Assembly (NCBI RefSeq): GCF_041321105.1
Contig: NZ_JBGGWD010000005.1
Span: 8,544 to 72,543, forward strand
Direction: 5' to 3'
Source of the DNA: Fibrella musci
GTDB lineage: Bacteria > Bacteroidota > Bacteroidia > Cytophagales > Spirosomataceae
DNA length: 64,000 nucleotides
The translations under genes were made by a program, and so were the position numbers. This document shows positions 17,263-64,000 of this stretch, piece after piece; position 1 is the stretch's first letter, and the number at the start of each line of letters is the position of its first letter. The notes under the pieces are model-generated. The model saw only the letters and a list, made by a program, of their open reading frames with translations, had not been told where the DNA came from and made no database searches.

Positions 17263-17522
17263 GAACTGCATCACCCTCGCAACCAGACAGATAAAATCGA
17301 TACGGCTGTGTTCTGCCGGGGAACGTACCTGAGTCGCTCATCAAGCGAGGAATACGCAAAGAATTGGGCTGGGTACGTCGACTCTGGCTTCAGCGTTAAC
17401 CAGTTGAGCCCTTAAGTCCCGCACCGCCGTTGGCATCGGGGCGGTGACTACGACTTTGTTCTCAGCCCGCTCGTCTTCTCCAGACGCGGAATCAGCTGAG
17501 TTTCGCATTCCGGTTTTCAGAC

Positions 17523-17556
17523 GAAAAGAGCCGCCCTGAGGGTGGCTCTTTTCGTT
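17523..17556. terminator. Intrinsic terminator-like hairpin GAAAAGAGCCGCCC/GGGTGGCTCTTTTC
   Basis: 14-bp stem that includes A/T tracts. No annotated gene reads into it. Confidence 0.4.
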
Positions 17557-17753
17557 AGGGGCAGGCGGCGCCCAATCGTTTCAACTGAGTTCTCGTTTGT
17601 GCCAGTTCAGACAGTACCCATGCCAATTGAACCTTCCTGTTCTTCGGCAGGGCTGAGGGGCCTCTCAACTTTGTGGCCGCCGGGTAAAACACGGTTCATA
17701 CAAACCGGCTCGTAACCCTGTCTGTCTTCCTCTTTTTAAACCGCATCAATGTC

Positions 17754-18974
17754 ATGTTTCGTTGTCCGAGTGTCCCCTCCTGTCTATTTCTCTTATTGAC
17801 GCTGCTCGCCTCTGCATTGGGTGGTTGCAAAAACGCCGCCACCGAGCCCGTCGACCCAACACAGCCCCCCGGCGGCGAGCCACCCCTCGAAAAACCCTTC
17901 ACGGCCATTCCCGACGAATTTGTGGGTACGTGGTACGCCTATCACAATCAAGGCCCACTAACCGACAACTGGACCAACGGTACTTTCCAGGGCGAACAGG
18001 GTTTTCGCGAGTTCCGTACTATGGTCTTCACCGGCGACGGCCGTAACGCCGTAGAGTACACCTCTCAGGTCTACAACTACGGCGATGAGACGTTGCAGAT
18101 CATCTACAAGGTCACAGGTACGTTGGTGTACAAAGCCAGTCCCGCTTCGATCACGTTCCACGCCCAGACGGGGATCCGGCGGACGTTTAGTAACAAGTAT
18201 TCGGGCTACAAAGACGCCTCGATAATTGCCAAGGACCTAAAGGACTACCAGATTGTCTGGGAGAATCCGCAGGCCACCAACATGTCGTCGATGACCAACT
18301 ACCTGACGACCACAATTATCGACCAGTCCGGACGGTATGCGAGTAAATACCAGAAACTAGGCGCAGGCAACCAGACGCCGACCACGGGCCTACCCTCGAC
18401 TACGCCCATCACCACCGGTACGTCGGTAAAAATCGGAAACCTGTATTACCCCACCGTTACGATTGGCAATCAGGAGTGGCTGGCCACTAACTATGCCGGT
18501 CCGGGTAGCCTGACTGAGCGCAACAAACCGCAGTACGGCACCTTCCTGGAATACGCCGATCTGGCAAAAATTCAACTGCCCGCGGGTTGGCGAATTCCCA
18601 GTCGGCAAGACTACACCCAGTTGCTCGAATCCCAGGGGTTGACCGTGTATGACTGGGGCACCAACGGCGAAGATGTTCCCTCGAAACGCATGTTGGGCCA
18701 GCTCATGGCCACCGACGCCTGGACCAAGAAAGACGGGTACGCCAACAACAAATCGGGTTTCAACGCCATGCCCGCCGACGTGCGCCGGCCCAAGGGTGTC
18801 AACCACGGCGAAGGCACGAACTGCACCCTGTGGATATCCGATCGAAATAGTTCAGATAACCCTATGTCGTTCAACATTATTCAGCTGCCCGGCGACACCT
18901 ACGCCACATTTGGCGAGCAGGTTCTGGGTTATGCCCCCGTGCTTATCCCACTTCGCCTCGTCCGGAATAAATAG
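17754..18974 (+). CDS. Lipoprotein with a C-terminal domain I take to be the Fibrobacter major paralogous domain
   Basis: Signal with LGGC lipobox. C-terminal GWRIPSRQDY...GFNAMPA pattern. Confidence 0.6.
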   Translation: MFRCPSVPSCLFLLLTLLASALGGCKNAATEPVDPTQPPGGEPPLEKPFTAIPDEFVGTWYAYHNQGPLTDNWTNGTFQGEQGFREFRTMVFTGDGRNAVEYTSQVYNYGDETLQIIYKVTGTLVYKASPASITFHAQTGIRRTFSNKYSGYKDASIIAKDLKDYQIVWENPQATNMSSMTNYLTTTIIDQSGRYASKYQKLGAGNQTPTTGLPSTTPITTGTSVKIGNLYYPTVTIGNQEWLATNYAGPGSLTERNKPQYGTFLEYADLAKIQLPAGWRIPSRQDYTQLLESQGLTVYDWGTNGEDVPSKRMLGQLMATDAWTKKDGYANNKSGFNAMPADVRRPKGVNHGEGTNCTLWISDRNSSDNPMSFNIIQLPGDTYATFGEQVLGYAPVLIPLRLVRNK

Positions 18975-19151
18975 AGCTGCGGCTTCCCCCGGCCAGATCG
19001 GCATCTGGCGACTCCGTATCCGGCGGGTAACGTACCTGCCGCCCGGCTCAGTACCTAAAGAACCGACCTGCCCCAGGCCTTGAGTCGGGTCGGTTCTACT
19101 GCCTCATCCACACCCCAATAAGATTCATCCATCCTCTTTTTTCATACCCAA

Positions 19152-19706
19152 ATGACAACTACTCGACTGTTGAACAGCCTTTTTCAGCCTCCTGTGCGCC
19201 GTTGTGCTGCCGGACTCCTGTCGATTGGCCTCTTGGCGTGCTCTTCCCCGGAAACGGCCCCGGCAACGGGCAACAACTACCTCAAGGTGACGCTCAACGG
19301 CCAGACCAAAACCTACACAAACGTCAAACTCGACGAAGAGGCCGTGGCTGGTTCGCTCCGCGTCTGGACCGTAGAAGGCAGAACCAGCGACGACGACTTT
19401 TTGTCCATGTCGTTCTGGGGAACCGGCACGGGCACTTACCCTTATAAGCCAACGGTCGATGCCTTCAAGCAGGTTAGTCAGATCGAATACCGAACCAAAA
19501 ACGGAATGCTGGCCAGTTATGCCGCCCTGGTTTGCCCCGACAACGCGGGTTATTATGCCCCACAGGGCCGCGTCGGAGTCACCCAGTATACCAATGGCAA
19601 AGCCGTTACCGGCACCTTCAGCGGGGCGTTGATGAGCGATCAGGACGCCGACAACTGCAACAAGCAGGGCACGCCCTTCAGCGGCGAATTTTCTATCCGT
19701 CAATAA
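19152..19706 (+). CDS. Lipoprotein (184 aa)
   Basis: Signal with LLAC lipobox. The antisense ORF 19125-19844 is probably a shadow of this gene. Confidence 0.5.
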   Translation: MTTTRLLNSLFQPPVRRCAAGLLSIGLLACSSPETAPATGNNYLKVTLNGQTKTYTNVKLDEEAVAGSLRVWTVEGRTSDDDFLSMSFWGTGTGTYPYKPTVDAFKQVSQIEYRTKNGMLASYAALVCPDNAGYYAPQGRVGVTQYTNGKAVTGTFSGALMSDQDADNCNKQGTPFSGEFSIRQ

Positions 19707-19831
19707 CGCCCGATTCATAACCAATCTATTCAACCACGAACCCATTTCTGGCTCACCACGAACCGATAACCGGCGAGGGTGATCATCCAGGGCATCATCC
19801 TGGAGGTGGGTATCTGGCCAGCCACACAACA

Positions 19832-20482
19832 ATGAATACTTCACTCATAACAAGTCAGATGACCTCGCTAAAGGGGATTTACTGGTGTTTGATCTGCGCA
19901 CTCCTGACGGCCGCCTGCCAGTCAACACCCGGCATAATCGAGCCACCGACCCCATCGCCTGACTCGGTTCGCATCGATGGTCATACCTACCCGACCCGGC
20001 TTATTGGCGCTCAGCGCTGGACCACCATCAATTACCGGGGACCGGGCGGTATTCCGTATGGCACTGGCACCGAAAAGCCGATCTACGGCCGCTATTACAC
20101 CTATGCTGAAGCCAAGGCGATTGCCCTGCCCGCAGGCTGGCGCTTGCCTACAGAGGCCGACTGGGTAACGCTGGTGCAAAGTCAGGGCATTATTCTGGAA
20201 CAGAACACGGCCAGGAAGCAGGAAGCGGTCAAAAAGCTGCTGTCGGTAACCAATTGGCGTAGTCTGCCGGGCACCAATGCCTCAGGATTCAACGCGCACC
20301 CTGCCGGCTACAGCACCAACAACCTTCCGCCCGAAGATGGCGATATCGCCGAGTTCTGGGCTGCGGGTGGCGTGTCGATGAGCATTCAGGAAAATAGCCA
20401 GGCTAATCACCTGCTGCGCTTCTACAGCAACGACAACGACCCGTCGGTCCGCTACACGCTCCGTTTTGTCTCCGATCGGTAA
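19832..20482 (+). CDS. Secreted protein with the same Fibrobacter-paralogous-like domain
   Basis: GWRLPTEADWVTLV...GFNAHPAGY; paralog of the 17754-18974 C-terminus. Confidence 0.6.
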   Translation: MNTSLITSQMTSLKGIYWCLICALLTAACQSTPGIIEPPTPSPDSVRIDGHTYPTRLIGAQRWTTINYRGPGGIPYGTGTEKPIYGRYYTYAEAKAIALPAGWRLPTEADWVTLVQSQGIILEQNTARKQEAVKKLLSVTNWRSLPGTNASGFNAHPAGYSTNNLPPEDGDIAEFWAAGGVSMSIQENSQANHLLRFYSNDNDPSVRYTLRFVSDR

Positions 20483-21899
20483 GGTCAATACAATGCTATC
20501 TCTCTACTCGAATCTTCCTTACATTATGTTTTTCTCCCTCCTCCGTAAAACGGGTTATGCCCTTGGCCTGCTCGGGCTGGCACTCGCCTGCAAACCGGGC
20601 CCCGACCCGATCGCACCCCCTCAGCCGCCGAAACCCGGCGTACCCACCGCTGTAGGCAAACCAATAGGTGCGGTCATCAGCAAAACCATCGGCCCCGCGG
20701 GTGGCACGCTCAGCAGCGCCGACGGTACCATGACCCTGCGTTTTCCTGCCGGAGCGCTAACCAAAGAAACGCTGATCACCGCTCAGCCCGTCGAAAACAC
20801 GGCGTTTGGCGGGGCTGGCGTGGGCTACGAATTTGGCCCCCACGGTACGCAGTTTGCCAAGCCCGTAACGCTAAGCTGGACCTACAAAGACAGTGACCTG
20901 CACGGCTCCTCGCCCGAGGCACTGGGCATTGCCGTCCAGGACGATAACCACATCTGGCGGGGACATACCAGCCTATTTGTCGAGGCCGATCAGCGGCGGG
21001 TTGTTGCGCCAATTTATCATTTCAGCCGGTATTCGTTCTACGAGAATTTTTGGATGGAGCCCATGCAGCAAACCCTGGCGCCTAACGAAACGGTAACGCT
21101 TAAAGTCTTCTACCAGGAGAATCACGGCCTGTACGAATCAAAGGGTTCAGAGGTGGTTCAGGAGCCAACACCTTGTAAACCGACGTCAGAAACAGAAGTA
21201 ACCCAGTGTTTAGGTGCCGATTTATTGACGCCGCTGACTTCTCCGGTGGAACTCTTGAAAGCGGATCAGGTAAAGAACTGGCGGGTAAACGGGCAGGACG
21301 TAACGGGTACCATTGAATCGCCAATTGGCTTTCTAAGCTATCACCAAGGTCAGTCAGTCATTTATAAGGCACCCGTCAGAGCGCCGGAGGCCAATCCCGT
21401 GGCCGTTAGTGTCGAGATTATCACACCGGGAAAAGGGAAACTGATGCTGGTTAGCAACCTGACCATCGAATCGCCCAATGAGCTGTACATCAACGGAGCC
21501 AAACAACCCAACGCGTACGCTAACGCCAATGTCGCCGAACTAGGCGCCTTTATTTTTGTAGGTCCGGAGCCCTACAAAAACGGTAACCAGAAACAGACTG
21601 GTGTTGCCATATCTTTTTCAGGAATTGGTGGTACCGGAACATTCACGCTTAGCAAGGAAATTGAAGGCAGGTTTTCAATGACCGCCATAGGACCGGATGG
21701 GCTAAACTATTCAGGGAGTTATGCGCCCCGACCAAACGGAGGTATCGTATACGGACCCGGCAGCGTGACGATTACCGAATTCAACTCCGCCAAAGAGCTC
21801 ATCGCTGGTTCATTCACGGCTACGCTTCATTATCAGGATCTGGAAAACAAAAGATACAAGTCAATGCAGGTCAAGGGGCGGTTCCGAACCGGAGGCTGA
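20466..21899 (+). CDS. Lipoprotein (477 aa)
   Basis: Signal with LALAC lipobox. No other motif recognised. Confidence 0.5.
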   Translation: MSPIGKVNTMLSLYSNLPYIMFFSLLRKTGYALGLLGLALACKPGPDPIAPPQPPKPGVPTAVGKPIGAVISKTIGPAGGTLSSADGTMTLRFPAGALTKETLITAQPVENTAFGGAGVGYEFGPHGTQFAKPVTLSWTYKDSDLHGSSPEALGIAVQDDNHIWRGHTSLFVEADQRRVVAPIYHFSRYSFYENFWMEPMQQTLAPNETVTLKVFYQENHGLYESKGSEVVQEPTPCKPTSETEVTQCLGADLLTPLTSPVELLKADQVKNWRVNGQDVTGTIESPIGFLSYHQGQSVIYKAPVRAPEANPVAVSVEIITPGKGKLMLVSNLTIESPNELYINGAKQPNAYANANVAELGAFIFVGPEPYKNGNQKQTGVAISFSGIGGTGTFTLSKEIEGRFSMTAIGPDGLNYSGSYAPRPNGGIVYGPGSVTITEFNSAKELIAGSFTATLHYQDLENKRYKSMQVKGRFRTGG

Positions 21900-21955
21900 G
21901 TACTTCAGGCGGGTTTCCCCACCGGGCAGCCAATTGTTTGTGTGTCCTTTCAGAA

Positions 21956-22023
21956 GGATATAGCCGAGGAGGCAGCTAGCGGGGTGTGAAGCGCCCTGGC
22001 TAGCTGCCTCCTCGGCTATATCC
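21956..22023. repeat. Perfect 25-bp inverted repeat with an 18-nt loop
   Basis: GGATATAGCCGAGGAGGCAGCTAGC...GCTAGCTGCCTCCTCGGCTATATCC, 57 nt after the stop of the preceding gene and without a T-run. Confidence 0.6.
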
Positions 22024-22446
22024 GTGTCTACCAAGCTGATAACAACCTCACTATCAACTGTTCGTTTTGGATCAGGTACGTTGTTCATGGTTAACGCCAC
22101 CCAAGGCCAATTCTTAACGCACTCTTACCCGCTCTATCGAAAAGTCATGAGTCAGACCGTCAGGTACGTCTGCTGGCAGCGGTAGTTCATCGAGGGTTGT
22201 CGGCACGCCTGTTACTCAGGTGAGCGCGAAGGCCAGACGAAAAACCACCCGGCTGCGTAAGCCGTGAAAAAACGTGCGGACTAGGCAACCTTACTACCCA
22301 TCGACCATAACAGAAACAGCCCGTGCTCAACGACAGACATCATTGAGCACGGGCTGTTGGATAATACGCTCAATCCGCTGGTTACGGTCAGCTTTGCAGG
22401 AACGAGCGTTTTCGGTAATCGGGCCGAAACCAGGTTGAACCAGCTG

Positions 22447-23781
22447 TTACTTCAGGGCTATTTCGATCACCGAATTAATATGCTGCCCTTCGCTTTCAGT
22501 ACGGGAATTCTGCGGATCGGTGAACCACTGGCCATCCACAATAAATTTGTAAGCGACCTTGCCGGGTTCCACCTCGATGTCGCTAACCCAGGCGTTGCCC
22601 TTCCGAACGAGGCGGTTAGTCTGCGAGCTCCAGTTGTTGAATGACCCGGCAACATAGACCGCTTTAGCGTCGGCAAAGCCTTTTAGCGCAAACGTATGGA
22701 CAACGTAGCGCGGCGGCTGACTCCTCAGTTCTGCAGCAATTCCCTGAAGCGCCTGCCGCCAATCGGGGGCCAGTGTGGTTTGCTTAGCCAACGCCCCAAG
22801 CGCCATAAGCTGAGCGGCATACAAGGCGCGATTGGCCGAAACAAGCGTATCGGGGGCCACGCCTACGCCCTCCCAGTTGGTGTGGGTTATGGGGTTGATG
22901 GCCCGGCCGTGGGGCACAAACAGGGCAAAATGGTCATTGACGCGCATTGTCTCGCCCGGATTGGCGCCGCCCTTGGTAGTGTCGCCCACAAGGGTGGCCC
23001 GCTTCAGGTTTTTGAGGTCGTAGGCCAGCTCCTCTGCTCCCGAGAACGTTTGTCGGCTGGTGAGGATATAGATGGGCTTTTTGCCGTAGTGACGACCCGA
23101 GACCTGGGCGTAGGTCCACGACTGAACAGTGCGATTACCCGTGCGCCAGTAAAAATCGTTGAGGTGCGTCGGCTCGTCGAAGAAATAGCTGCACAGCATC
23201 GGAATGGCGTGCTCCGACATGGCCCCGTGGCACTGCCGCAGATCGATGATCAGGGCATCGGTCCGGGCCAGGTAGTTCAAGGCGGCACTGTACGATTCAC
23301 CGGCAAACTCCGGCGGAGCAAGGTATTTGAAATTAATGTACCCCAGGTTCCCTTTCAGCACCGACACCCCCAGAATTCCGAAGTTTTCGCGGCGTAGCCC
23401 TTCCTGCATATAGCTTTTCTGCTGCTGCATCTCGGCGGGGGATAAGTCTTTTTGCCACAGTTGCTCCTGGGGAACGCCCTCCGGGAAATACGTCATGTGC
23501 ACGTGTTGATCGTGACAGATGCTTTGCAGGTCAGCGGTTAGTTGGCGGGCCAGCTGATAGCCGTCAGTCAGGGCCTCATAACTACGCAGCCGATCATGGA
23601 TGTGGCGTTCCATCTGCGCGGCGACTTCCGGAAAAACATACTGTTCGTTAAGGAGCCGGGTGGCGGCCTGGGCAGTTTGCCGAGCTTCGGCGGGTGCGAG
23701 GGCGGTCTGTCGGGTCGACTGGGCTACCGACGGGGCACTCACGGCTAAGAGGGCCCACAAGGGAAATAGGGATGGTCGCAT
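22447..23781 (-). CDS. S41 family C-terminal processing peptidase with a C-terminal CBM48/AMPK-beta-like glycogen-binding domain
   Basis: TSRQTFSGAEELAYDLK active-site region. C-terminal ...VYVAGSFNNW...KFIVDGQW... Start chosen at MRPSLFPLWALLAVSAPSVAQ (signal peptide) rather than the longer ORF start at 23970. Confidence 0.7.
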   Translation of the reverse strand: MRPSLFPLWALLAVSAPSVAQSTRQTALAPAEARQTAQAATRLLNEQYVFPEVAAQMERHIHDRLRSYEALTDGYQLARQLTADLQSICHDQHVHMTYFPEGVPQEQLWQKDLSPAEMQQQKSYMQEGLRRENFGILGVSVLKGNLGYINFKYLAPPEFAGESYSAALNYLARTDALIIDLRQCHGAMSEHAIPMLCSYFFDEPTHLNDFYWRTGNRTVQSWTYAQVSGRHYGKKPIYILTSRQTFSGAEELAYDLKNLKRATLVGDTTKGGANPGETMRVNDHFALFVPHGRAINPITHTNWEGVGVAPDTLVSANRALYAAQLMALGALAKQTTLAPDWRQALQGIAAELRSQPPRYVVHTFALKGFADAKAVYVAGSFNNWSSQTNRLVRKGNAWVSDIEVEPGKVAYKFIVDGQWFTDPQNSRTESEGQHINSVIEIALK

Positions 23782-24140
23782 GGGGAGTCGTATTGATTGG
23801 TGAATAAACCAAAGTTGGCTTGAGCTAGCCGCCCCCCCAATCGTCTGATGCATGGGCTGTCGATCTGCCTGCCCCAATTGCGTTGAAGACCGAGCGAACT
23901 GTTGCCCGAGCGACATTGACAGTTCGCGCCAGTCGACAGCGACGACTCGTATGATAAGTGCCGCACGCAACTGCCCCCCGACGGCAACTGGGCCGCGCCA
24001 TACAATGCATACACGTATTTAGACAATTCACTCGTAAAACCTGCCAATTGATACGGTCCTGGCACGACAGCCTGCGCGGAATAAACTATGTTTGACCAAC
24101 GTAAGGAAGCCGAAAGCCTCGCTCCATACCGCCCTACCCC

Positions 24141-25277
24141 ATGACCCTGCGCCCCGCCGATTTCTGGCTACGATTTATTGGCATTGGCTTGCAGAGTGGT
24201 CTGTCGATCATCACGAGTGAGGCTTTCTGGCAACCCCCGTCTTATCAACACCTCGTTCTGGTTGTGTACGTTCTGGCACGAACAACCGCGCTCTGGCAGG
24301 TAAACCGGGCCATTATCACCAGGTTTCGGTATGGGGTTAGCTGGGGGAACAGGGTCAGCAAGCGGCTGGCGATGACTTTCCTGGCCTGCTTCGGAGCAAC
24401 CACGCTGCTTCTGTGGGTATTTGACCTAATCTGGTTCGTAGGGATAGAGCATGAATCAACAGGTTCGATTCTGGACAGCAAGCATATCTACCTAAACTTT
24501 GGCAGTGTCAGGATTGCCATGAACACCTTCACCGTCGAGTTGTTTCATGCTTTTTTCTACTCCACCTTCTATCTAACGATCTACGAACTGTTCTTTTTCC
24601 GGCAGGACTCCTCGCGGTATCGGCTCGAACTGGCTCGTTCGGAAAAAGAGCGGGAGAAGCTGCACACGGCAAATCTGGAAAGCCAGTTTAACGTGCTGAA
24701 GCAGCAGGTAAACCCCCACTTTCTGTTCAACGCCCTCAATTCGCTGTCGGCCCTGATCAGCGAAGACCCTCAACAGGCCGAGGTGTTCGTGGATAAACTC
24801 AGCGGCGTGTATCGCTACGTGCTGCGGGCCAACAACGAGCCCCTGACTACGCTGGCGGCCGAGCTGGACTTTATCGACTCGTATTTTCACCTGTTGCAAA
24901 CCCGGTACGGCACCGGCTTGAGCCTGACGATGCAGGTCGACGAGCGTAGGCGCGGCTATAAGCTCCCGCCTCTAACGCTGCAACTGCTGGTGGAGAACGC
25001 CGTTAAACACAACGTGGTGTCGCCTAAGCGACCGCTTACCATCCTGATATACACGGATGAGTCGGGCCAGCTGGTTGTGCAAAACAACCTGCAACGCAAG
25101 GCCACCCGCGTCCTCTCCAACGGCGTTGGGCTAAATAACATAATGGCTAAGTATCAGATACTTAATTTACCCCAGCCAGCTATCGAAGAGACGGCAGGTC
25201 AGTTTACGATCCGGCTTTCGTTGTTGGCCGACGCCGCGTCACCAGCTACGGGACCGGCCGGGCTGATCAGCGATTAG
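24141..25277 (+). CDS. LytS/YehU-type sensor histidine kinase (His_kinase PF06580 type); orphan
   Basis: NPHFLFNALNSLSALI motif with N-terminal TM helices. No LytTR regulator nearby. Confidence 0.7.
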   Translation: MTLRPADFWLRFIGIGLQSGLSIITSEAFWQPPSYQHLVLVVYVLARTTALWQVNRAIITRFRYGVSWGNRVSKRLAMTFLACFGATTLLLWVFDLIWFVGIEHESTGSILDSKHIYLNFGSVRIAMNTFTVELFHAFFYSTFYLTIYELFFFRQDSSRYRLELARSEKEREKLHTANLESQFNVLKQQVNPHFLFNALNSLSALISEDPQQAEVFVDKLSGVYRYVLRANNEPLTTLAAELDFIDSYFHLLQTRYGTGLSLTMQVDERRRGYKLPPLTLQLLVENAVKHNVVSPKRPLTILIYTDESGQLVVQNNLQRKATRVLSNGVGLNNIMAKYQILNLPQPAIEETAGQFTIRLSLLADAASPATGPAGLISD

Positions 25278-25386
25278 TGCGCTAACCCGGCGGGACGTAT
25301 CAGAAACACCATACGCTCCTCAAAGGCATTACTACCTGAATACGACATACGGGCAGCGAGCCTGTTTACGCGGGATACGAAACGCC

Positions 25387-26304: not shown

Positions 26305-26322
26305 ACCAGTTGTTTTGGCCCT

Positions 26323-26366
26323 GTTCAGCACCGGGCTTGTTGAGTAACAAACCCGGTGCTGAACAG
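26323..26366. terminator. 22-bp hairpin with a 4-nt loop between the aldo/keto reductase stop and the AraC start
   Basis: CCTGTTCAGCACCGGGCTTGTT-GAGT-AACAAACCCGGTGCTGAACAGG, with one G-T pair. Confidence 0.55.
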
Positions 26367-26379
26367 GCTAACCACTCTA

Positions 26380-55887: not shown

Positions 55888-56242
55888 ATCTATATATAGC
55901 CTTCTATATAATCATTATCGTAACGAAAAAAAGATAAAATTCATTACTATACAGTTGCTTATTCGTTCTGTCGCAGGTAGTTGGGGCAAATCACCGCCTC
56001 CGCAACGTGCTTAACCCAGGTGATTCGTGTCGGCGGGGACGTGTCTAGGCCGGGGTTCGCTCACGAGTGGCTGGCAAATAGCCGCAACGTGCTGTTTTAC
56101 AGAATATTCCTGTCCGCCGAGACGTGCTTACGCCGTGACGCGTACGCCTTACACGGACAAGCAGCAACCCCCCTGAGTGTTGATGGATGAGGGCGCTACA
56201 TGCCTGAACAATCGAAACTTGCAACCTTTACACACTCATTAT

Positions 56243-56271
56243 GTTGGGCTGAACACTTGCCTTTGAGACGT
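56243..56271. repeat. Island-flanking repeat copy 2: GTTGGGCTGAACACTTGCCTTTGAGACGT
   Basis: Imperfect direct repeat of 53411-53439. Confidence 0.45.
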
Positions 56272-56466
56272 GCGGCCTGTCGACGGAGAGCTGCCCCGGC
56301 GCAGAGCGAACAACAACGTACCCAATCCAATTCTGTACTGACGGCGAAGCTAGTTAACTAACCTTCTTCTATACCGAGACTATATGTCTAAACGCGCTGC
56401 CTGTCGCCAGCGAATAGCAAAGGAGAAAAGTACAAGTCGACAATATTAAATTTTGAAACACAGATA

Positions 56467-57057
56467 TTATTTGTCTGGCCTTCTTCTCCTTTTTTTAGAC
56501 AATATACTTTTTAGAAGTTGCTCTTCTTCTGGAGTGAGTTCATCTTCAGAATAATCAACACCTTCAGCAGTACTAGTGTGATTTTTACTGGATTCACCTT
56601 CAGAAGTATCAATATCAGGACTATTTAATAATTTTGGCTCAGGGGCCATTAATTTTCTTGGGCTGTATGTTGAATGTTGTTCAAACTCAGGCAAAATCGC
56701 ACCAGCTAAAATAAAATCATTAGCTCCTGTAAAAATATTTCTTCTTAAAATTTCAGCTTGCTCCCTTCCTATTTTCTCCTCTTTTTCAAGAGTATTGATA
56801 TTTTCAATGACTGGTAAAGCTTTAGTAATCAGATCTATGCGTTCGTGAAGTTTCTTTTCTCTATAAAATATTACTCTATCCCAAAGTCCTATAATTAATT
56901 CCTTTAACGAGGTAACTACTTTTGCCGCGCCTAAAAAGTCAAAAGATTTATCGCTGCCTGAATCGATAGCTACAACGCTTAAGTCGTTTTCATTGTGTCC
57001 TAAAATTTGCGCTATAGTTTCATAAAAGAGATTAACACTACTAAGGGCTTTTATCAA
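56467..57057 (-). CDS. Hypothetical protein (196 aa) with an acidic, Lys/Arg-rich tail
   Basis: AT-rich ORF. C-terminus ...EEEQLLKSILSKKRRRRPDK. No known motif. Confidence 0.4.
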   Translation of the reverse strand: MIKALSSVNLFYETIAQILGHNENDLSVVAIDSGSDKSFDFLGAAKVVTSLKELIIGLWDRVIFYREKKLHERIDLITKALPVIENINTLEKEEKIGREQAEILRRNIFTGANDFILAGAILPEFEQHSTYSPRKLMAPEPKLLNSPDIDTSEGESSKNHTSTAEGVDYSEDELTPEEEQLLKSILSKKRRRRPDK

Positions 57058-57183
57058 ACGTTCAGGATGTGATGCTTCTTTATTTTCTTCAGGAAGAATA
57101 ATTGTAATAATTTCTTGATTATCATATGGGTTGTAGTCAACAGATACTTGGTTGTTAGTGCGTTGTATATAATCAACATTATC

Positions 57184-57543
57184 TTATTTTAACAGATCAG
57201 GTAGTTTATCTAAATAATCCCTGATGAACGTTAACCCTCTATAATATTTAATATAAACCTCCCTGGAAGTGCCATTATCACCAGCTAAAATTCGTGTCCA
57301 TATCTTAGTACTTTCAATACCGTCTAACCCGAAAATTGATAGAATTTCTTTGTCAGTTTTGTCGAAATTACGGTAGTAATTAGAGAACGTCTGAAACGCT
57401 TCAACTGCAATCTCTGGATTAGCTTTCTTATCAGAAGAAGAAGACGGTGAAACGACATGTTGAAAAACACTAACGACTCCTGAGTCTATAATGGCTTTTT
57501 TTAATTTCATTATAGAGTTAATAATGTCAATTCTTCTCATCAA
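57184..57543 (-). CDS. Hypothetical protein (119 aa)
   Basis: AT-rich ORF, 126 bp upstream of and on the same strand as the 196-aa ORF. Confidence 0.4.
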   Translation of the reverse strand: MMRRIDIINSIMKLKKAIIDSGVVSVFQHVVSPSSSSDKKANPEIAVEAFQTFSNYYRNFDKTDKEILSIFGLDGIESTKIWTRILAGDNGTSREVYIKYYRGLTFIRDYLDKLPDLLK

Positions 57544-58029
57544 ATTTTATCTATAAGTGGAATTAATCAGTAAATGATCAAAGTCTATAAAGACTGAAAA
57601 TGTAAGTTAGTTCTTTTTTCAAAAACTTTCTAATTGAATGCCACATACCTAATAGACGTGCTTTAACCTTATCGGGGCGGTCAGCTACCATCCTAGACTC
57701 TGGAATGTAAACCTCAACTTACCCAACGATCACATTCCCATGTCGCCCGAAACCCAGAAATGAAAGCCCCAGAGCTGCCCCTGTCGGGACGTGCAACTTG
57801 TCGCACGAGGCATGCATCTCACGCTTTTTATTCTTGTCTGGCGCACCCAACATAGTATTGGACGCAAAACTGCGGAACTATTCCCATTGATAATCAGACG
57901 ATTCTAGTTCCGCAACTACATTTTCTTGTGTTGATTCGGTCAAAGGCGTTTACAAATACGAAAATAGATTGGTTATGTCCAATGGCCGTTGCGGATTTTT
58001 TCTGGACGGTATTCCGGCTGGGTCCATTT

Positions 58030-58962
58030 TCATCGGAACAGTACGATCAGGGCGGCGCCGATGACCATGATGGTGGCGCCGATTAGTTTAGGCAATAGCT
58101 GGCGTTCGCCGAAAAACTGGTAGCCAAACAGTACACTCACGACCGCCGACGTCTGGAAGAGTGCCAGTGCGTAGCCTACCTGCATGCCACTGAAGGCCAC
58201 CGTAGTCGATAGTTGCATCAGGCCCACCAGGGCAATCAGGGCCAGGTAGCTCATGCGTTGGCGGGCCAGCAGTCGGCATTGGGCGGCTATCGTCGAGCGG
58301 TGCAGGCTGCCGTACCAGCCCCACGACAACACGCTGCCCAGCACGCACCAGACCACAAACACGGTGGTGGCATCGGCCAGCAGCACGGCCCTTTTGATAT
58401 ACACCGCCTCAATGGCCGAGCAGATCAGCGCCAACACGCGCCACCGGATTTCGGGTTGCCCCATCAGCCGCCAGCCGCCACCGCCCGCGCCGCGATTGGG
58501 TTGCAGCACGAAGTAGCTCCCCAGCACAATTAGCCCCACGCCCAGCAGGCCCGCCACGCTCGGCACTTCGCCCAGCAGCACGGCCCCCACCACCATACTG
58601 ACGACGGCCTTGTAGGCGTTGATCGGCCCCAGCACCGACAAATCGCCCGTCTGCAAGGCTTTAACCAGCAGCGTATTGCCCAGCACGGCTAATACGCCCA
58701 TCAGCAGCGCGTTGGTCCAGAAGTCGAGGCTCAGGTGCCGGGCGGTTTCCCAGCGATAGACGAACAGGCAGGCGATGAACAACCCGGTGTAGGTCACCGC
58801 CGTCACGAACAGCGGATCGGCGGATTGGTGCGTGAGCTTCTTCTGAAAAACGTTGGCCAGCGGATTGGCCAGAATCCGAACCAGCAGAGCCAGGGAGGTT
58901 ATCGTACCAACGAAGAGCAGCATGGGCCGGGCAGATTGGGTAAAGCAAGCAGCAATGGGCAA
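58030..58962 (-). CDS. DMT superfamily (EamA-like) transporter
   Basis: Ten predicted TM helices in a duplicated five-helix arrangement. Confidence 0.7.
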   Translation of the reverse strand: MPIAACFTQSARPMLLFVGTITSLALLVRILANPLANVFQKKLTHQSADPLFVTAVTYTGLFIACLFVYRWETARHLSLDFWTNALLMGVLAVLGNTLLVKALQTGDLSVLGPINAYKAVVSMVVGAVLLGEVPSVAGLLGVGLIVLGSYFVLQPNRGAGGGGWRLMGQPEIRWRVLALICSAIEAVYIKRAVLLADATTVFVVWCVLGSVLSWGWYGSLHRSTIAAQCRLLARQRMSYLALIALVGLMQLSTTVAFSGMQVGYALALFQTSAVVSVLFGYQFFGERQLLPKLIGATIMVIGAALIVLFR

Positions 58963-58988
58963 AGGAGCCGGCGGGGTTGGTGGGCGGG

Positions 58989-60161
58989 TTAGTCGGTGGT
59001 CAGGGTCGTCCCGTCGGCTACGCGCACTACATAAGCCTTCCCCCCTACCCGGTCAATCGCCTCGGCAACGGCCTCGGCCCCGTTGGGCGCGTAGACGAAC
59101 ATGGATCCGCCGCCACCTGAGCCGTTGATTTTGCCACCCAGTGCCCCCGCCGCCAGGGCCGCGTCGAGCATCCGGTCGATTTTAGGCGTCGAAATGCGCT
59201 GGGCATCGCGGAGGTTGGTCTGGTGCTCGGTCAGCAACGTACCCAGTTGCCGATCAAACGCCGGTACGTTGGTGGGGGGCGTCTGCAACTGCGTGTGGGC
59301 CTGCCGCAGCAGGTCGCGGTTGGCGAGGGTGCCTTTCAGCAGGATGTACTCGTCTTTCGTGAGCTGGTCTTTGAACTCAGGTACGTCGGTAAGGGCGGCC
59401 GTGTGCAGCGAGAAGTCGGGGCGGCTTTGTTGGATGCGCTGCACCACGTCGAGCATCCCGAGTTTAACCCGCCGCAGAATGCCGATGGTATCTTTTGGCT
59501 CCCCGGAATCGCCCAGCACGAAGGTGCCGAGTGGGGGCGTCAGGGCTTCCAGGGCGATGGCGGGCGTGCCGTCGGGTCGTTGCGATTCGAGGTAAATCAC
59601 GTTGCCCACGGCGGTGGCGAAGTGGTCCATCATACCGCCCGGTTCGCCAAATTCGAGCACTTCGGCGCGGTAGGCCAGTTCGGCCAGGGTCATGGGCGGC
59701 AGGTGGCGGGGCGCATCGGCCAGTTGACTCAGCACATTCAGCCAGCTCACAATCAGGGCCGACGAACTCGACGCCCCGGCGTTGATCGGGATGGTGCCGC
59801 GTACGGTCGCTTCGATGCCTCGACTAAAGGTGAACCCCTCCTGCAACAGCACATTCACGCACGACCGCAGGTAATCCCGGTCGGCCGGGTACGGCAGGCG
59901 ATTCCCGTCGAACGGAATGATCACATCCTGACCGATGTCGGGCAGATGCAGACGGAACTCGCGGGCATTGGGGTCAGGGCGGGCGGTGAGGGCAACGCGG
60001 CGGTCGATGGCGGCGGCAATGACTGGCAGGCCCAGGTAATCGAGGTGTTCGCCAAATAGACAAATGCGGCCGGGCGTCGAGGCAGTGAGGTTCGTTGTTA
60101 ACACGCAGAAACAAGCGGGAAGGTGTAGGAGGTCGTTGGCGGTTGGGCCAGACAGGGTCAA
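58989..60161 (-). CDS. GHMP family sugar kinase (galactokinase-like)
   Basis: ICLFGEHLDY, NAGASSSSALIVS (PxGSGLGSSAA-type), and C-terminal GGKINGSGGGGSMF. Confidence 0.7.
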   Translation of the reverse strand: MTLSGPTANDLLHLPACFCVLTTNLTASTPGRICLFGEHLDYLGLPVIAAAIDRRVALTARPDPNAREFRLHLPDIGQDVIIPFDGNRLPYPADRDYLRSCVNVLLQEGFTFSRGIEATVRGTIPINAGASSSSALIVSWLNVLSQLADAPRHLPPMTLAELAYRAEVLEFGEPGGMMDHFATAVGNVIYLESQRPDGTPAIALEALTPPLGTFVLGDSGEPKDTIGILRRVKLGMLDVVQRIQQSRPDFSLHTAALTDVPEFKDQLTKDEYILLKGTLANRDLLRQAHTQLQTPPTNVPAFDRQLGTLLTEHQTNLRDAQRISTPKIDRMLDAALAAGALGGKINGSGGGGSMFVYAPNGAEAVAEAIDRVGGKAYVVRVADGTTLTTD

Positions 60162-60193
60162 AGTAACGGAATTTGGCCGTCAGTCGGGCGGCG

Positions 60194-61402
60194 TCACAGC
60201 TTCAGCCGGATACCCAGTCGGTTGAGGCCACCCGTCACGCCCACACAGAGCAACGCAAACAGCAGCGACTTGATCAGCCCGATACCGCCCGTCAGCAGGA
60301 CGGCGGGCAGGTGGAGATCGGCAAACTCGACGAACGCATAGGCGAAGTAGGGTATCAGGTAACACAGCAGGGTGTCGGTCCCGGCGGGTTTGATCGCCCG
60401 AAACCAGTGGCCCTTACCCGCCACGTCGACCAGCCAGTGCAGGGCCGTAAAGGCCAGCAACGTAAACGCACTGCACAGAAACAGCCAGGCGGGGGTAGCG
60501 CCCAGTTTGGCCAGCCCCCAGATGGGCCGGGTGTAGATCGACAGCCCGATCAGCCCCACCGACGCCAGCAGAAAGCCGAGGGTCATGGCCCGCCCGTAGC
60601 CTCGTTCGACGCACCACCGAAACACGGTGGCCGTCAGCGCCCCGCCCAACGTCAGGCCGGCGAGGGTGCCTCCCCGGATGGCGTCGGGTATCCACTGCAC
60701 CAACGGCGGAAACGCATAGGCCTTTGCCGCCACGCTCAGCCCACAGAAGGCCACCCAGATCATCGCCAGCACGGCGATGCGCCCGCCCGCCAGCAAGGTA
60801 GCCAGCGCTCCCACCAGATACGACCAGCCAATGAGGCCCAGAATACCCCACCAGTGCGTGGCAAACGGTCCCAACGGATCTCCGCCCCGGTAGCGCAGGG
60901 CCAGCCCCAGCAGCACCACCCAGCCGACAAGCGGACCGATGCGGCGGCGGACCGGCGACCCAGTTTTGGGGTACGTGTTCCAGATGAGGATGAAGGCGCT
61001 ACAGGCCAGTACGTTCCAGCCAAGGCGGGGAATACCCGTGGCCGCTTCGTTTATGTATTCGCCGTTGACGAGCCACAGCCCCATCACCAGCAGGGCGGCG
61101 GCGCGGGTGAGGATATGCCCGGCGATCTGCGTGTCGGTTTCCTGCCGGGTACGTCGGTGCTGAATGGCAAACGGGATCGACAGCCCCACGATGAACAGAA
61201 AAGCCGGGAACACCACGTCGGCGAGGCCAATGCCATCGGCCCCCTCAGGTACGTGTTCCAGCCAGGCCGGGATGGCCGTCAGTGACCAGAGGTCATTGAC
61301 AAAGATCATTAGCACCATCGTCAGCGCCCGCAGCACGTCGATGGAGTCGACGCGGGTGAGCACCCGGTGTGGGCTGGTTGTAGCGGAAGCGGTCGATACC
61401 AT
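60194..61402 (-). CDS. Membrane acyltransferase, DUF1624/DUF5009 (HGSNAT-like)
   Basis: N-terminal RVDSIDVLRALTMVLMIFVND followed by ~10 TM helices. Confidence 0.55.
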   Translation of the reverse strand: MVSTASATTSPHRVLTRVDSIDVLRALTMVLMIFVNDLWSLTAIPAWLEHVPEGADGIGLADVVFPAFLFIVGLSIPFAIQHRRTRQETDTQIAGHILTRAAALLVMGLWLVNGEYINEAATGIPRLGWNVLACSAFILIWNTYPKTGSPVRRRIGPLVGWVVLLGLALRYRGGDPLGPFATHWWGILGLIGWSYLVGALATLLAGGRIAVLAMIWVAFCGLSVAAKAYAFPPLVQWIPDAIRGGTLAGLTLGGALTATVFRWCVERGYGRAMTLGFLLASVGLIGLSIYTRPIWGLAKLGATPAWLFLCSAFTLLAFTALHWLVDVAGKGHWFRAIKPAGTDTLLCYLIPYFAYAFVEFADLHLPAVLLTGGIGLIKSLLFALLCVGVTGGLNRLGIRLKL

Positions 61403-61474
61403 AGCAGGCCGGTTTACGCCCCCAAGATAAGCCCGATCGAATCGCTTTTAACGACCCGAGCGGGTCAAACCGCC

Positions 61475-62392
61475 TTAGAAATACAGATTGGCGGCGGTCC
61501 GAAAGGTGTTGCAGTGGGCATCGACGATGTCGGCCACGCGGGGCGAGTACCCGCCGCCCATCGACACCACAATGGGCAGGCCCACCCGCCGGGCTTCTTC
61601 GAACACAAACCCATCGCGCTGCTGCACGCCGGCCATCGACACGCCCAGCTTGCCCAGTCGGTCGGTTTCCAGAATATCGACACCCGCCACGTAGAACAGA
61701 AAATCGGGCTGTTGCTCGGTCAGGAGCCGGGGCAGCGTGTCATAAAGAAGGTTCAGGTACGTGTCGTCGCGGGTGCCGGTGGACAGTTCCACGTCGAGGT
61801 CCGACTGTTCTTTTTTGAGCGGATAATTGTCTTTGCCATGCATGCTGAACGTAAACACGCGGGGTTCCCCCTGAAACATCACCGCCGTACCGTTGCCCTG
61901 ATGCACATCGAGGTCGATGACCAGTATCTTCTTTGATTGCCTCGTTTCGAGCAGGTAGTGTGCCGCTACGCCCACGTCGTTGAGCAGGCAAAAGCCTTCA
62001 CCATGATCGGGGTAGGCATGGTGCGTCCCCCCGGCCACGTTCATGGCAACGCCGTCGCGGCGGGCGTGTTTGGTGGCGTCGAGCGTGCCCTGCGTGATGA
62101 CCCATTCGCGCTCGATCAGCCGGGGCGACATCGGGAAGCCAATCCGCCGGACCATCCGGGCATCGACGGTCTGCGTTTTCAGGGCGTCGACGTACCCAGC
62201 CGTGTGCACTCCCAGCACCCAGCGGTCGTCGACGGGATCGGGGGCGAAGAAGTTGGCCTCCGTGCAGGTGCCGTCATAAAGCAGCTGTTCGTGAATGAGT
62301 TCGTATTTGATCATCGGGAACCGGTGGGGTTCGCCGTTGGGTCCGGTGGGCAATTCGTGCTTATAAAGCGGGGCGTAGGCGATTCTGAGCAT
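61475..62392 (-). CDS. Histone deacetylase superfamily protein (AcuC/HDAC-like)
   Basis: DLDVHQGNGTA and GFCLLNDVGVAA motifs. Confidence 0.8.
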   Translation of the reverse strand: MLRIAYAPLYKHELPTGPNGEPHRFPMIKYELIHEQLLYDGTCTEANFFAPDPVDDRWVLGVHTAGYVDALKTQTVDARMVRRIGFPMSPRLIEREWVITQGTLDATKHARRDGVAMNVAGGTHHAYPDHGEGFCLLNDVGVAAHYLLETRQSKKILVIDLDVHQGNGTAVMFQGEPRVFTFSMHGKDNYPLKKEQSDLDVELSTGTRDDTYLNLLYDTLPRLLTEQQPDFLFYVAGVDILETDRLGKLGVSMAGVQQRDGFVFEEARRVGLPIVVSMGGGYSPRVADIVDAHCNTFRTAANLYF

Positions 62393-62554
62393 CTAAACAA
62401 ATGATGGGCCGTTGGATAAAAATTGACGCCCGCTAAGGAAATGAGTCTCAACGTATAGCGTACTGCGTTCGTAATTTGGTGGTCTTCGCGGTCCCGAGTT
62501 AGAAAACCCAAAAGCAGCAAGGGCAGTTTATCCAATACCAATTTCATCGACCCT

Positions 62555-62989
62555 ATGAACATCGAACTATCTACCTCCGCCGAGCCGGTGCCCTTCGAAC
62601 TTCTCGACGTACTGGTTCAGAATCGCCGCGATCAGGATGCCAACCGCTCGCTGTTATCGCTGCATTTTGTGGGCAAACGTGGCCTTCAAACCGATCGCCT
62701 CAAGATGCCCCTGCTGACCTGGTACGATGCGAATCGGTTGCAACAATTTACCCATCAATTAGCCAACGCCGACCCGTCGGACCGCCCGCGCGATGGGCAT
62801 ATCGACCTGCCCGATGCCGGTTTGCGGCTGGTTGCCAACACCAAAGGTCGCCCGTCGATCCGGGTTGAAGCCATGCCCACCGCCAAACGTCGGTTTGCGC
62901 CCGTTGTCATCAACGGCAGCGCCGCCGGCCTGCGCGACTACGCCAAGGTGCTCTATACCCGCCTGTGGGAAGCCTTCTGCCGGGGGTGA
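62555..62989 (+). CDS. hypothetical protein (144 aa)
   Basis: ORF followed by a strong terminator. Confidence 0.45.
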   Translation: MNIELSTSAEPVPFELLDVLVQNRRDQDANRSLLSLHFVGKRGLQTDRLKMPLLTWYDANRLQQFTHQLANADPSDRPRDGHIDLPDAGLRLVANTKGRPSIRVEAMPTAKRRFAPVVINGSAAGLRDYAKVLYTRLWEAFCRG

Positions 62990-63028
62990 TCGTGAATGCA
63001 CAATGAATAATGCGGTCCGCCGCTGCGG

Positions 63029-63095
63029 GACAATGCACAATGGGCCGACGCAAGTGTGATCTTGCGTCAGCCCATTGTGCATTGTCTGTTATTAT
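63029..63095 (+). terminator. Intrinsic terminator: 17-bp and 8-bp nested perfect stems followed by a T-rich tract
   Basis: GACAATGCACAATGGGC...GCCCATTGTGCATTGTC with inner GACGCAAG/CTTGCGTC, then TGTTATTAT. Confidence 0.7.
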
Positions 63096-63217
63096 CATAC
63101 TTAAGTATAAATTCTTGCTATTTTCACTAGTTACGCCAAGTAGATCATCATGGAAAACGGCTTATGCGGCCGTTTAGTGAACCTGTTGATTGCACCACTA
63201 TTCACGTAACTAGCCAC

Positions 63218-64000
63218 ATGAGGACATCCCTTTGTAAGCTTGGAACCGCATTAGGCTTCCTGGTCTTACTTACAAGAACTACCCTATTCGCCCAGGCACA
63301 GCAAGCCGACGCGGCCCTATTTGATAAAGGCGCGTTCATCGACGGTGGCCTGCCCGCGATTCAGGCCATAACGCCCAAAGGAGAACTTCCCGGGAAGAAA
63401 ATCCCCTATTACCTACGTAGTGGCGACGGTGAACGTTACCTGGTAGGCGGGTTGGTCGTGAACAGGATGGCCCGGGCCGCCGACACAGGCGATCTGTATG
63501 AGTGGACTGTCATTACGGGTGGGAAAGGGGCCATGCTGCCGTCGCACACGCATGCCCAAACGCACGAAGCAATCCTGGTGCTCGACGGTGAACTTGAACT
63601 CTGGCTGGCCGATAGGCACTACCGTCTCATAAAGGGTGATTTTGCCAGTGTCCCGCCCGGTACATCCCATGCCTTCCGCCTGCTTTCCCACCATACGCAG
63701 TTGGTCTCCATGAGCAATGGCAACCGGATGGACGCCCTCTACCGAACACTGGGAAAACCCTACATCGGCACGGTTCAACCATCGGATGATGTCCCTGCCA
63801 TCGATCAGGCAACGTTGAAAAAGGCAGAAACCGTAGCTGATGTACACTTCGACGGTAAGCCGCTGACTACCGGTCATGCCGAACGCGTCTCAAACGCCCA
63901 ACTGCCCAAATCGGCGGTACCCTACGTACTGGCGGCGGGCGAAGGCGATCGCTATACCATTGGGAACGAGCTCTTTGGCATCTTGTGTGACAATGCGACG
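63218..64000 (+). CDS. Secreted cupin (quercetin-dioxygenase/pirin-like bicupin), partial; continues beyond the window end
   Basis: ATG at 63218, signal peptide MRTSLCKLGTALGFLVLLTRTTLFAQA. Cupin motifs ...PSHTHAQTHEAILVLDGELE... and ...PPGTSHAF. Confidence 0.55.
   Translation, partial: MRTSLCKLGTALGFLVLLTRTTLFAQAQQADAALFDKGAFIDGGLPAIQAITPKGELPGKKIPYYLRSGDGERYLVGGLVVNRMARAADTGDLYEWTVITGGKGAMLPSHTHAQTHEAILVLDGELELWLADRHYRLIKGDFASVPPGTSHAFRLLSHHTQLVSMSNGNRMDALYRTLGKPYIGTVQPSDDVPAIDQATLKKAETVADVHFDGKPLTTGHAERVSNAQLPKSAVPYVLAAGEGDRYTIGNELFGILCDNAT

Follow-up and report, generated by a model that had tools for sequence, protein, structure and literature searches.

GGTACGT, an over-represented and clade-restricted DNA word of Fibrella and Fibrivirga, as a candidate uptake-like mark of self DNA

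The stretch of Fibrella musci DNA considered here, 64,000 nucleotides of contig NZ_JBGGWD010000005.1 (positions 8,544 to 72,543; the window), comprises the end of a prophage (1..17245) and host chromosomal DNA (17246..64000) in which a short asymmetric word, GGTACGT, recurs far more often than chance predicts. Exact counting finds 68 copies in the window, 48 on the (+) and 20 on the (-) strand. Host DNA holds 63 of them (45 + and 18 -, the same numbers as within 17320-64000), a density of 1.35 per kb. The prophage end is motif-poor: it has five copies, a chance level, none of them with a CA flank, against ~23 expected at host density (Poisson P = 6e-6).

In dinucleotide-preserving shuffles of the window, GGTACGT appears 5.76 +/- 2.30 times (maximum 12). 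The longer 9-mer CAGGTACGT, which occurs 19 times on the (+) and 6 times on the (-) strand, 25 in total and all inside 17320-64000, appears in the shuffles 0.34 +/- 0.54 times. These are the top-ranking 7-mer and 9-mer of the 17.3-64 kb region, where the expectation under an order-2 Markov model is 4.4 and 0.38 occurrences per strand, respectively. The original prediction for this DNA had estimated about 40 forward and 14 reverse copies between 17.3 and 64 kb, a 7-mer excess over some 8 expected by chance, about 25 copies of the 9-mer against fewer than one expected, and three palindromic sites; exact counting bears out all four, with the palindrome GGTACGTACC at 11400, 27649 and 29288. Its individual 9-mers are likewise real (19 of 19 forward, at most 8 bases off, and 5 of 5 reverse), although a sixth reverse copy, at 27652, had been missed. 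The Markov comparison that it proposed yields a large excess at order 2; at maximal order the expectation for GGTACGT is 36 against 45 observed, a comparison that says little, as the same excess is present in the 6-mer sub-words GGTACG and GTACGT.

When all copies are aligned, the seven-base core is invariant and is accompanied by weak preferences at -2 (C/T), -1 (A/G) and +1 (T), which together give the consensus YR-GGTACGT-T; outside -2 to +1 the alignment of all copies reveals no conservation. The dinucleotide before the core is CA in about half of the copies, followed by TG, CG and TA, and (C/T)(A/G)GGTACGT occurs about once per 750 bases of chromosome. Membership in a longer repeat or mobile element is rejected, as the flanks are not conserved. 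The copies do not resemble repetitive extragenic palindromes or miniature inverted-repeat transposable elements, i.e., longer imperfect palindromes placed between genes: 87% lie inside open reading frames (ORFs), nine of the 68 are intergenic, and their flanks are unconserved. The distances between copies fit an exponential distribution (Kolmogorov-Smirnov P = 0.46), and periodic or clustered placement is rejected on the same ground.

The enrichment acts at the level of DNA, not protein. Copies occupy all three codon phases in both sense orientations as well as intergenic DNA, extending to all six frame and sense classes the earlier remark that different phases were used. Genes contain 48 copies against 11.9 after a synonymous-codon shuffle, performed within each of 38 genes with the protein sequence and per-gene codon usage preserved, an excess of about four-fold; in 1000 such shuffles the maxima for the two orientations are 11 and 15 copies. 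A per-strand version of the shuffle test is circular because the shuffle preserves amino-acid contexts that the word itself has created. An independent-codon model with the motif codons masked expects 4.7 copies against the 48 observed, and the word makes use of the Val codon GTA, which is disfavoured. Together, the synonymous shuffle and the independent-codon model refute a codon or amino-acid artefact.

Orthologous sites are preserved beyond their surroundings. The window aligns with the corresponding locus of the closest relative (L001) over 11.2 kb at 86% identity, and of the sites in it, 13 of 15 in the window and 13 of 13 in L001 are conserved, against 43% of all 7-mers and 37% of the 7-mers that lie no more than 42 bases from a site (P = 1e-4); per base, identity is 98.1% inside the word and 83.3% in the flanks. 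The sites conserved in L001 include GGGGTACGT at 43824..43832 (-) in ORF 43574-44032(-), TGGGTACGT at 44687..44695 (-) in ORF 44046-44978(-), CGGGTACGT at 45065..45073 (+) in ORF 44982-45314(-), an intergenic CAGGTACGT at 45663..45671 (+), two further CAGGTACGT copies on opposite strands of ORF 47339-48277(+) (47352..47360, -; 47454..47462, +) and one at 53118..53126 (+) in ORF 52371-53234(-). ORF 60194-61402(-) adds GGGGTACGT at 60968..60976 (+), CGGGTACGT at 61146..61154 (+) and CAGGTACGT at 61246..61254 (+), the last conserved in its 7-mer core. At 48484..48492 (+), in ORF 48328-48807(-), the window has GGGGTACGT and L001 has GGTAGGT.

The gene ispG carries four sites, some of them also common to F. 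arboris and to an uncultured Fibrella. TGGGTACGT at 48984..48992 (-) is conserved in L001, in the uncultured Fibrella (L005) and in a metagenomic relative (L210); TGGGTACGT at 49825..49833 (+) is conserved in these three and in F. arboris (L002); TAGGTACGT at 50749..50757 (+) is conserved in L002 and L005 and lost from L001 and L210; and CGGGTACGT at 50833..50841 (+) is conserved in L001. At the first three of these sites, Spirosoma linguale and Rudanella lutea have identical residues (G-Y-V, N-V-P and D-V-P, respectively) but specify them by word-free synonymous codons. L210 retains two of the four ispG sites despite showing no enrichment of the word. Where the Fibrella word has CG, the outgroups have CA or TG at orthologous sites.

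The word is restricted to the Fibrella/Fibrivirga clade (Spirosomataceae, Bacteroidota), like a dialect. By its IspG, the window is 94% identical to one Logan assembly, 83-85% to F. arboris, F. aquatica and an uncultured Fibrella, and 77-82% to Spirosoma, Rudanella and Nibrella. Loci around ispG were taken for comparison without regard to the motif. The Fibrella-type loci are rich in it: 23 copies in 22 kb of L001, 26 in 22 kb of L005, 26 in 22 kb of a Fibrella-like metagenomic contig syntenic with L005 (L211), 20 in 20 kb of F. aquatica (L212) and 17 in 17.6 kb of F. arboris beyond a repeat array (L002). The neighbours have 5 in S. linguale (L003), 5 in R. lutea (L004), 10 in R. paleaurantiibacter (L208), 5 in Nibrella (L209) and 7 in L210, whose IspG is 85% identical, each in 22 kb. 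Overall, density reaches 1.1-1.5 per kb in six Fibrella/Fibrivirga species groups with a shared consensus, CA>TG-GGTACGT-T, and flanks otherwise unconserved, and 0.2-0.45 per kb in Spirosoma, Rudanella, Nibrella and L210; a single Larkinella locus, itself selected by pattern, has one copy beyond its seed pair. In a pooled 379 kb of Fibrella/Fibrivirga DNA there are 504 copies against 83 expected.

A scan for paired CAGGTACGT copies, spaced 55-85 bases, across one genome per species of the GTDB collection points the same way. Among the matches listed (at least 114 loci), 36 are from Fibrella (six species-level genomes) or Fibrivirga algicola, and among these matches repeated hits on separate contigs occur only in the two genera; the remaining listed loci are essentially single chance-level matches scattered over unrelated phyla, and a few doubles resemble local repeats. 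The original suggestion of a host-specific signal is thus upheld for a real DNA-level word limited, among the genera sampled, to Fibrella and Fibrivirga. Motif-rich phages did not emerge: a scan of viral contigs gave only one-strand tandem-repeat matches in low-GC contigs. L210, by IspG as close as the named Fibrella species, represents either a lineage in which the word is decaying or one outside the clade; a dialect of its own was rejected, as its top words are codon-pair or tandem-repeat effects. The L210 locus (ENA ERZ26165134 contig_1, 120990-143005) includes an (ATGTACA)n tandem repeat at 20783-20830. In R. lutea (L004; KB913013.1, 130242-152239), GTCGGTA/TACCGAC occurs 23 times in 22 kb against 5.5 expected (4x), in several frames and both orientations, and in R. 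paleaurantiibacter only 15 times; GTCGGTA could represent, in another genus, a weaker word that shares GGTA with the Fibrella word.

A non-coding repeat array of F. arboris, at the contig start of JBGGWE010000004.1 (L083 1-8000) and also present in L001 at 7078-7805, is built of ~430-bp units that are ~71% alike and carry three co-oriented copies of the word each (22:1 in 8 kb). The array has iteron-like TGTC/ACG sub-repeats, adjoins a tyrosine recombinase and has no convincing ORFs, and the word is better conserved in it than the rest of the unit. A structured RNA was considered for the array and rejected (folding z-scores of -0.6 and -0.4, no Rfam hit).

The word leans to one strand in the window and is balanced in independent loci of related genomes. 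The 45:18 bias (binomial P = 0.0009) places 71% of copies, and 76% of the 9-mers, on one strand; each of the six 8-kb blocks shows a lean in that direction. It appears in genes of both orientations, with sense-strand GGTACGT:ACGTACC of 7:3 in (+) genes and 10:28 in (-) genes (Fisher P = 0.02), a test weakened because three of the seven wrong-way copies of (+) genes sit in one repetitive gene. DNA of L001 not common to the window gives 7:3 in the same direction (totals minus conserved sites). By contrast, other Fibrella/Fibrivirga genomes, sampled in 34 independent 8-kb loci and counted with the selecting seed copies removed, give 156:149, with a summed chi-square of 25.3 at 34 degrees of freedom and no overdispersion. 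CA 9-mers alone in the 34 loci give 57:73 without overdispersion, and four 18-22 kb loci chosen without the motif give 13:13, 13:13, 11:9 and 8:9. A skew of 70%, as in the window, would have produced clear overdispersion, so the bias does not generalise. Orientation shows no correlation with the per-locus third-position GC (GC3) skew, a noisy estimator, and GC skew as an indicator of the replication strand is flat across the window. Gene-sense preference is not a robust cause of the bias: sense-strand ACGTACC prevails 68:35 in the ispG-region loci, which share orthologous sites, and the independent loci give 128:138. Of the ~3:1 bias that was first likened to Chi- or KOPS-type polarity (KOPS, FtsK orienting polar sequences), the local imbalance therefore stands and the polar interpretation is not supported; the proposed check against GC skew found no link. 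We treat the bias as a local, unexplained feature and not as evidence for a replication-polar element.

The motif-poor prophage end carries a Toprim/DnaB-like primase-helicase gene (1443-3296, -) with CTGGTACGT at 2253..2261 (-), an astacin-like protein (4334-5125) and an 1853-residue tape-measure protein (7305-12866, -). The tape-measure gene contains GCGGTACGT at 11398..11406 (+), part of a palindrome GGTACGTACC, with TGGGTACGT at 11403..11411 (-), and GGGGTACGT at 11732..11740 (+). The fifth chance-level copy, GTGGTACGT at 16912..16920 (+), lies in the gene for a tyrosine integrase with an Arm-binding domain (15570-16937, -), which adjoins a tRNA remnant (17191-17245, -; Rfam tRNA match, model positions 10-63). 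An inverted pair of tRNA-derived segments surrounds a hairpin at 17080-17245, where ARAGORN calls no tRNA; the pair is probably the prophage attachment site. The segment 17130-17234 is 85% identical to L005 13785-13888, and the window has no known RNA families (Rfam) besides tRNA remnants. An AT-rich insert in the prophage (13000-15540, GC ~0.32) encodes a 417-residue protein without a Pfam match and a Schlafen/AlbA_2 protein, and looks like defence-like cargo. The foreign origin first proposed for the motif-poor left part is borne out by this prophage end, its integrase beside a tRNA remnant and its 5 versus 23 copies. For the element once placed at 1-17 kb, the count of about five copies is confirmed and the true left boundary of the host DNA is the tRNA remnant at ~17245.

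In host DNA the first copies are intergenic, CAGGTACGT at 17323..17331 (-) and TGGGTACGT at 17370..17378 (+), followed in ORF 17754-18974(+) by TGGGTACGT (17923..17931), CAGGTACGT (18115..18123) and CCGGTACGT (18415..18423), all on the (+) strand, and by an intergenic CAGGTACGT at 19030..19038 (-). The region 19040-25500 consists of two successive ~3-kb motif deserts over FISUMP-domain proteins, an S41-like peptidase and a histidine kinase, and may be accessory DNA younger than its surroundings; CAGGTACGT occurs here at 22073..22081 (+), in a short ORF 21861-22100(-), and at 22161..22169 (+), between genes. Beyond it lie TGGGTACGT at 25506..25514 (-) in ORF 25387-26331(-), and CAGGTACGT at 26503..26511 (+) and TGGGTACGT at 26961..26969 (+) in ORF 26380-27399(-). 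ORF 27580-27822(-) holds a palindrome GGTACGTACC made of CCGGTACGT at 27647..27655 (+) and CAGGTACGT at 27652..27660 (-), and TGGGTACGT at 27708..27716 (+). In ORF 27897-29561(-) the (+) strand carries TGGGTACGT at 28684..28692 and 29205..29213, TAGGTACGT at 28837..28845 and CCGGTACGT at 29286..29294, the latter forming another palindrome GGTACGTACC with GGGGTACGT at 29291..29299 (-).

Within 29657-34230, a WYL/WCX regulator gene (29657-30706, -), which contains TGGGTACGT at 30013..30021 (+), adjoins tRNA-like fragments at 31010-31092 (weak Rfam tRNA match, 31041-31092). Genes for a Band_7/SPFH protein and an RtcB RNA ligase come next, in an arrangement reminiscent of RNA-repair operons with tRNA-like non-coding RNAs. 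Copies here are TGGGTACGT at 31274..31282 (+) in ORF 31110-31430(+), CAGGTACGT at 31933..31941 and 32076..32084 (both +) in ORF 31443-32558(+), and CAGGTACGT at 32956..32964 and TGGGTACGT at 34005..34013 (both -) in ORF 32695-34230(+). Two chromate-resistance genes of the segment 34307-38268, encoding a ChrA transporter (34307-35455, -) with TGGGTACGT at 34876..34884 and 35059..35067 (both -) and a ChrB-AraC fusion (37399-38268, -) with CAGGTACGT at 37783..37791, 37849..37857 and 38106..38114 (all +), flank a Fic-domain protein (36243-37349). The Fic region falls inside a motif desert at 35.07-37.78 kb.

Further along, ORF 38231-39709(-) has CGGGTACGT at 39028..39036 (-) and CAGGTACGT at 39208..39216 (+), and its start codon is abutted by TAGGTACGT at 39709..39717 (+). 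All copies up to 43 kb are then on the (+) strand: TGGGTACGT at 40400..40408 in ORF 39731-40549(-), CAGGTACGT at 40715..40723 in ORF 40542-41096(-), and TGGGTACGT at 41541..41549, CAGGTACGT at 42157..42165 and CCGGTACGT at 42289..42297 in ORF 41185-42654(-). Besides the sites already described in the segment aligned with L001, there are intergenic CAGGTACGT copies at 47201..47209 (+) and 53384..53392 (-), and a doubtful short ORF 53983-54195(-) with GGGGTACGT at 54027..54035 (+) and TAGGTACGT at 54082..54090 (+). An AT-rich island at 54200-57550 (GC ~0.40) encodes a DUF4411 protein (54203-54709) overlapping an IrrE/ImmA-type M78 peptidase (54706-55887), a pair that looks like a toxin-antitoxin or defence pair, and two small ORFs. 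The AT-rich cassettes had been thought motif-free, but this island (54.2-57.5 kb) holds one intergenic copy, TGGGTACGT at 56316..56324 (-), its sole one. The remaining copies are TGGGTACGT at 59237..59245 (-), CCGGTACGT at 59261..59269 (+) and CAGGTACGT at 59378..59386 (+) in ORF 58989-60161(-), and CAGGTACGT at 61754..61762 (+) and TGGGTACGT at 62190..62198 (-) in ORF 61475-62392(-).

By analogy with known systems, we tentatively favor YR-GGTACGT-(T) as a lineage-specific self-DNA word of Fibrella/Fibrivirga that resembles an uptake sequence, the likeliest of the explanations considered, although we assign it well short of an even chance. Asymmetry, a density of ~1 per kb, indifference to frame, to gene and, as a rule, to strand, orthologous conservation, clade restriction and depletion from mobile DNA together match the uptake sequences of Neisseriaceae and Pasteurellaceae. 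A sequence-specific DNA-binding part of a DNA-import or recombination pathway would prefer fragments bearing the word, so that the reader, we infer, would be an uptake or recombination machine. Copies would arise by point mutation and would be spread or kept through homologous replacement between conspecifics (molecular drive) or through direct selection; the word would thus build up to ~1 per kb in long-resident DNA, in any gene, frame or strand, and newly arrived DNA, e.g., a prophage, would come without it. Uptake sequences reportedly show no genome-wide orientation bias (PMC2346458), mobile elements of Neisseriaceae are described as poor in the DNA uptake sequence (DUS; PMC7371117), and self-preferential DNA uptake has been shown in a member of the Bacteroidota, Riemerella columbina, whose signal was not identified (PMC7965970).

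Several observations count against this explanation. Single-mismatch neighbours of the word are not enriched, at 0.3-1.2x expectation in the pooled 379 kb, whereas Haemophilus has many imperfect copies of the uptake signal sequence (USS). With an invariant core of just seven bases, the word carries ~15-16 bits, flanks included, and falls below DUS and USS. Within the 20 kb scanned (17.2-37.2 kb), no copy overlaps a terminator-like hairpin and there is no association with inverted pairs of copies; about half of DNA uptake enhancing sequences (DUES) are reportedly located in terminators. The window has no gene for competence machinery or for a sequence-specific receptor such as ComP of Neisseria, its 45:18 bias is not accounted for by an uptake model, and the lack of enrichment in L210, so close by IspG, means that the model needs a loss of the reader in that lineage.

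The same features could be put to a different use by a Chi-like site, which AddAB or RecBCD would read as single-stranded DNA, switching from degradation to RecA loading and so protecting self DNA. A sharp, over-represented asymmetric 7-9-mer, enriched in resident DNA, scarce in a prophage and leaning to one strand across every block of the window and in genes of both orientations, is what such a site might look like. Against it stand the balance of the 34 independent and four unbiased loci, where the Chi sites characterised so far are skewed 60-80% to one replication strand, the lack of a link to GC3 skew, the weakened Fisher test and a density of 1.3 per kb, above that of 7-8-mer Chi sites. 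We regard a Chi-like role as unlikely; it keeps some weight because the window is biased and because Bacteroides uses AddAB, for which Chi had not been identified as of 2010 (PMC2887965), and we found no later report for any member of the Bacteroidota. Less probable again is a word of the HIP1 type, kept by DNA modification or short-patch repair, e.g., by an orphan methyltransferase and a mismatch endonuclease that converts near-matches, with no role in uptake or double-strand breaks. Conservation of orthologous copies above their flanks and placement in every frame are reported for HIP1 as well (PMC4390886), the CA or TG of outgroups at sites where Fibrella has CG would suit such a conversion, and several one-mismatch neighbours fall below expectation (GGTACAT 0.60x, GGTACCT 0.30x, CGTACGT 0.34x). 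However, part of this depletion is artificial, since sub-words of GGTACGT itself raise the Markov expectation; the internal palindromes GTAC and ACGT, counted away from the word, stand at ~0.77 of the base-composition expectation by arithmetic from the counts; the window has no DNA methyltransferase or Vsr-like gene; and the word is no palindrome, GGTACGT differing from its reverse complement ACGTACC and joining it in GGTACGTACC only three times.

An abundant chromosome-organising or segregation protein, binding as a monomeric reader along the resident chromosome, would explain a sharp motif placed at random and absent from foreign DNA, and the F. arboris array, with its three co-oriented copies per ~430-bp unit and a word better kept than the rest, would fit as well. 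Yet no such protein is indicated in the window, and in the comparable systems (parS, matS, SlmA and Noc) the sites are palindromes, with tens of them in a genome and not thousands, which leaves this explanation improbable and a shade below the HIP1-like one. The local 3:1 strand bias of an asymmetric word also recalls a guide for the FtsK translocase, of the KOPS or AIMS (architecture-imparting sequence) type. KOPS-type motifs are far rarer, ~1 per 10 kb, and here the skew, 71% at best and absent in relatives, falls short of the flipping skew of more than 80-90% expected of such guides. Motifs of this type are described as highly skewed (PMC3384302). Finally, abundant words in relatives can indeed be by-products of codon or amino-acid usage or of repeats: in L210, CATCGAC lies in one frame in 13 of 19 cases, and ATGTACAAT is a tandem repeat. 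For GGTACGT, an origin of this kind, or from paralogous repeats or a mobile element, is contradicted by the four-fold excess over synonymous shuffles, the occupation of all frames, both senses and intergenic DNA, the end of conservation at -2/+1 and the use of a disfavoured Val codon. The guide reading has a very slim chance and the by-product reading a slimmer one, and both are effectively ruled out.

The literature searched yielded no paper on the word in a bacterial context and no description of uptake sequences or Chi in Bacteroidetes. To our knowledge, only two proteobacterial families are established to recognise self DNA by a sequence tag during natural transformation. That Fibrella and Fibrivirga hold the first uptake-type, or otherwise machine-read, self-DNA word outside Proteobacteria is doubtful on present evidence; if true, Bacteroidota would possess a sequence-specific DNA reader with no relation to ComP, serving import, recombination or the discrimination of self from non-self. 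At 1.3 per kb, a genome would by extrapolation contain ~8,000 copies. The word offers a concrete candidate for the questions of an uptake tag and of Chi in Bacteroidota, in a cultivable genus; it marks resident as opposed to recently acquired DNA in Fibrella genomes, here the prophage and islands; and it could inform the design of transforming DNA for Fibrella-type bacteria.

As a lineage-specific word, YR-GGTACGT-(T) is akin to DUS, USS, Chi and HIP1, although it is unrelated to them in sequence, belongs to a phylum without a described example and does not share all the features of any one family. KOPS and architecture-imparting sequences resemble it in being asymmetric and locally strand-biased; its skew is far too weak and inconsistent, and its density about ten-fold too high. 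HIP1 (GCGATCGC, cyanobacteria) is similarly hyper-abundant, present in all frames, conserved beyond its flanks, patchy among relatives and debated in function, but has cognate methyltransferases and is palindromic, unlike the asymmetric word of Fibrella. Chi sites (E. coli GCTGGTGG, B. subtilis AGCGG, L. lactis GCGCGTG, S. aureus GAAGCGG) are likewise over-represented, asymmetric 5-8-mers, lineage-specific and enriched in resident DNA, and the 71% one-strand share of the window is in keeping with them; the Fibrella word is denser, and the bias is absent from 38 other loci of related genomes. DUS (ATGCCGTCTGAA and its dialects, Neisseriaceae) and USS (AAGTGCGGT and ACAAGCGGT, Pasteurellaceae) differ from the Fibrella word of Bacteroidota in their unrelated sequence, in its shorter strict core of seven bases plus three weak positions and in its unenriched one-mismatch variants; its lack of a terminator or inverted-pair association at 17.2-37.2 kb sets it apart from DUS, of which the association is typical, and not from USS, which do not require it. 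What the Fibrella word shares with DUS and USS is a short asymmetric form at ~1 per kb, placement inside genes in all frames and between genes, occurrence in related genera and absence from their neighbours, conservation at orthologous positions, prophages and islands poor in the word, and, in the relatives sampled, no genome-wide strand polarity.

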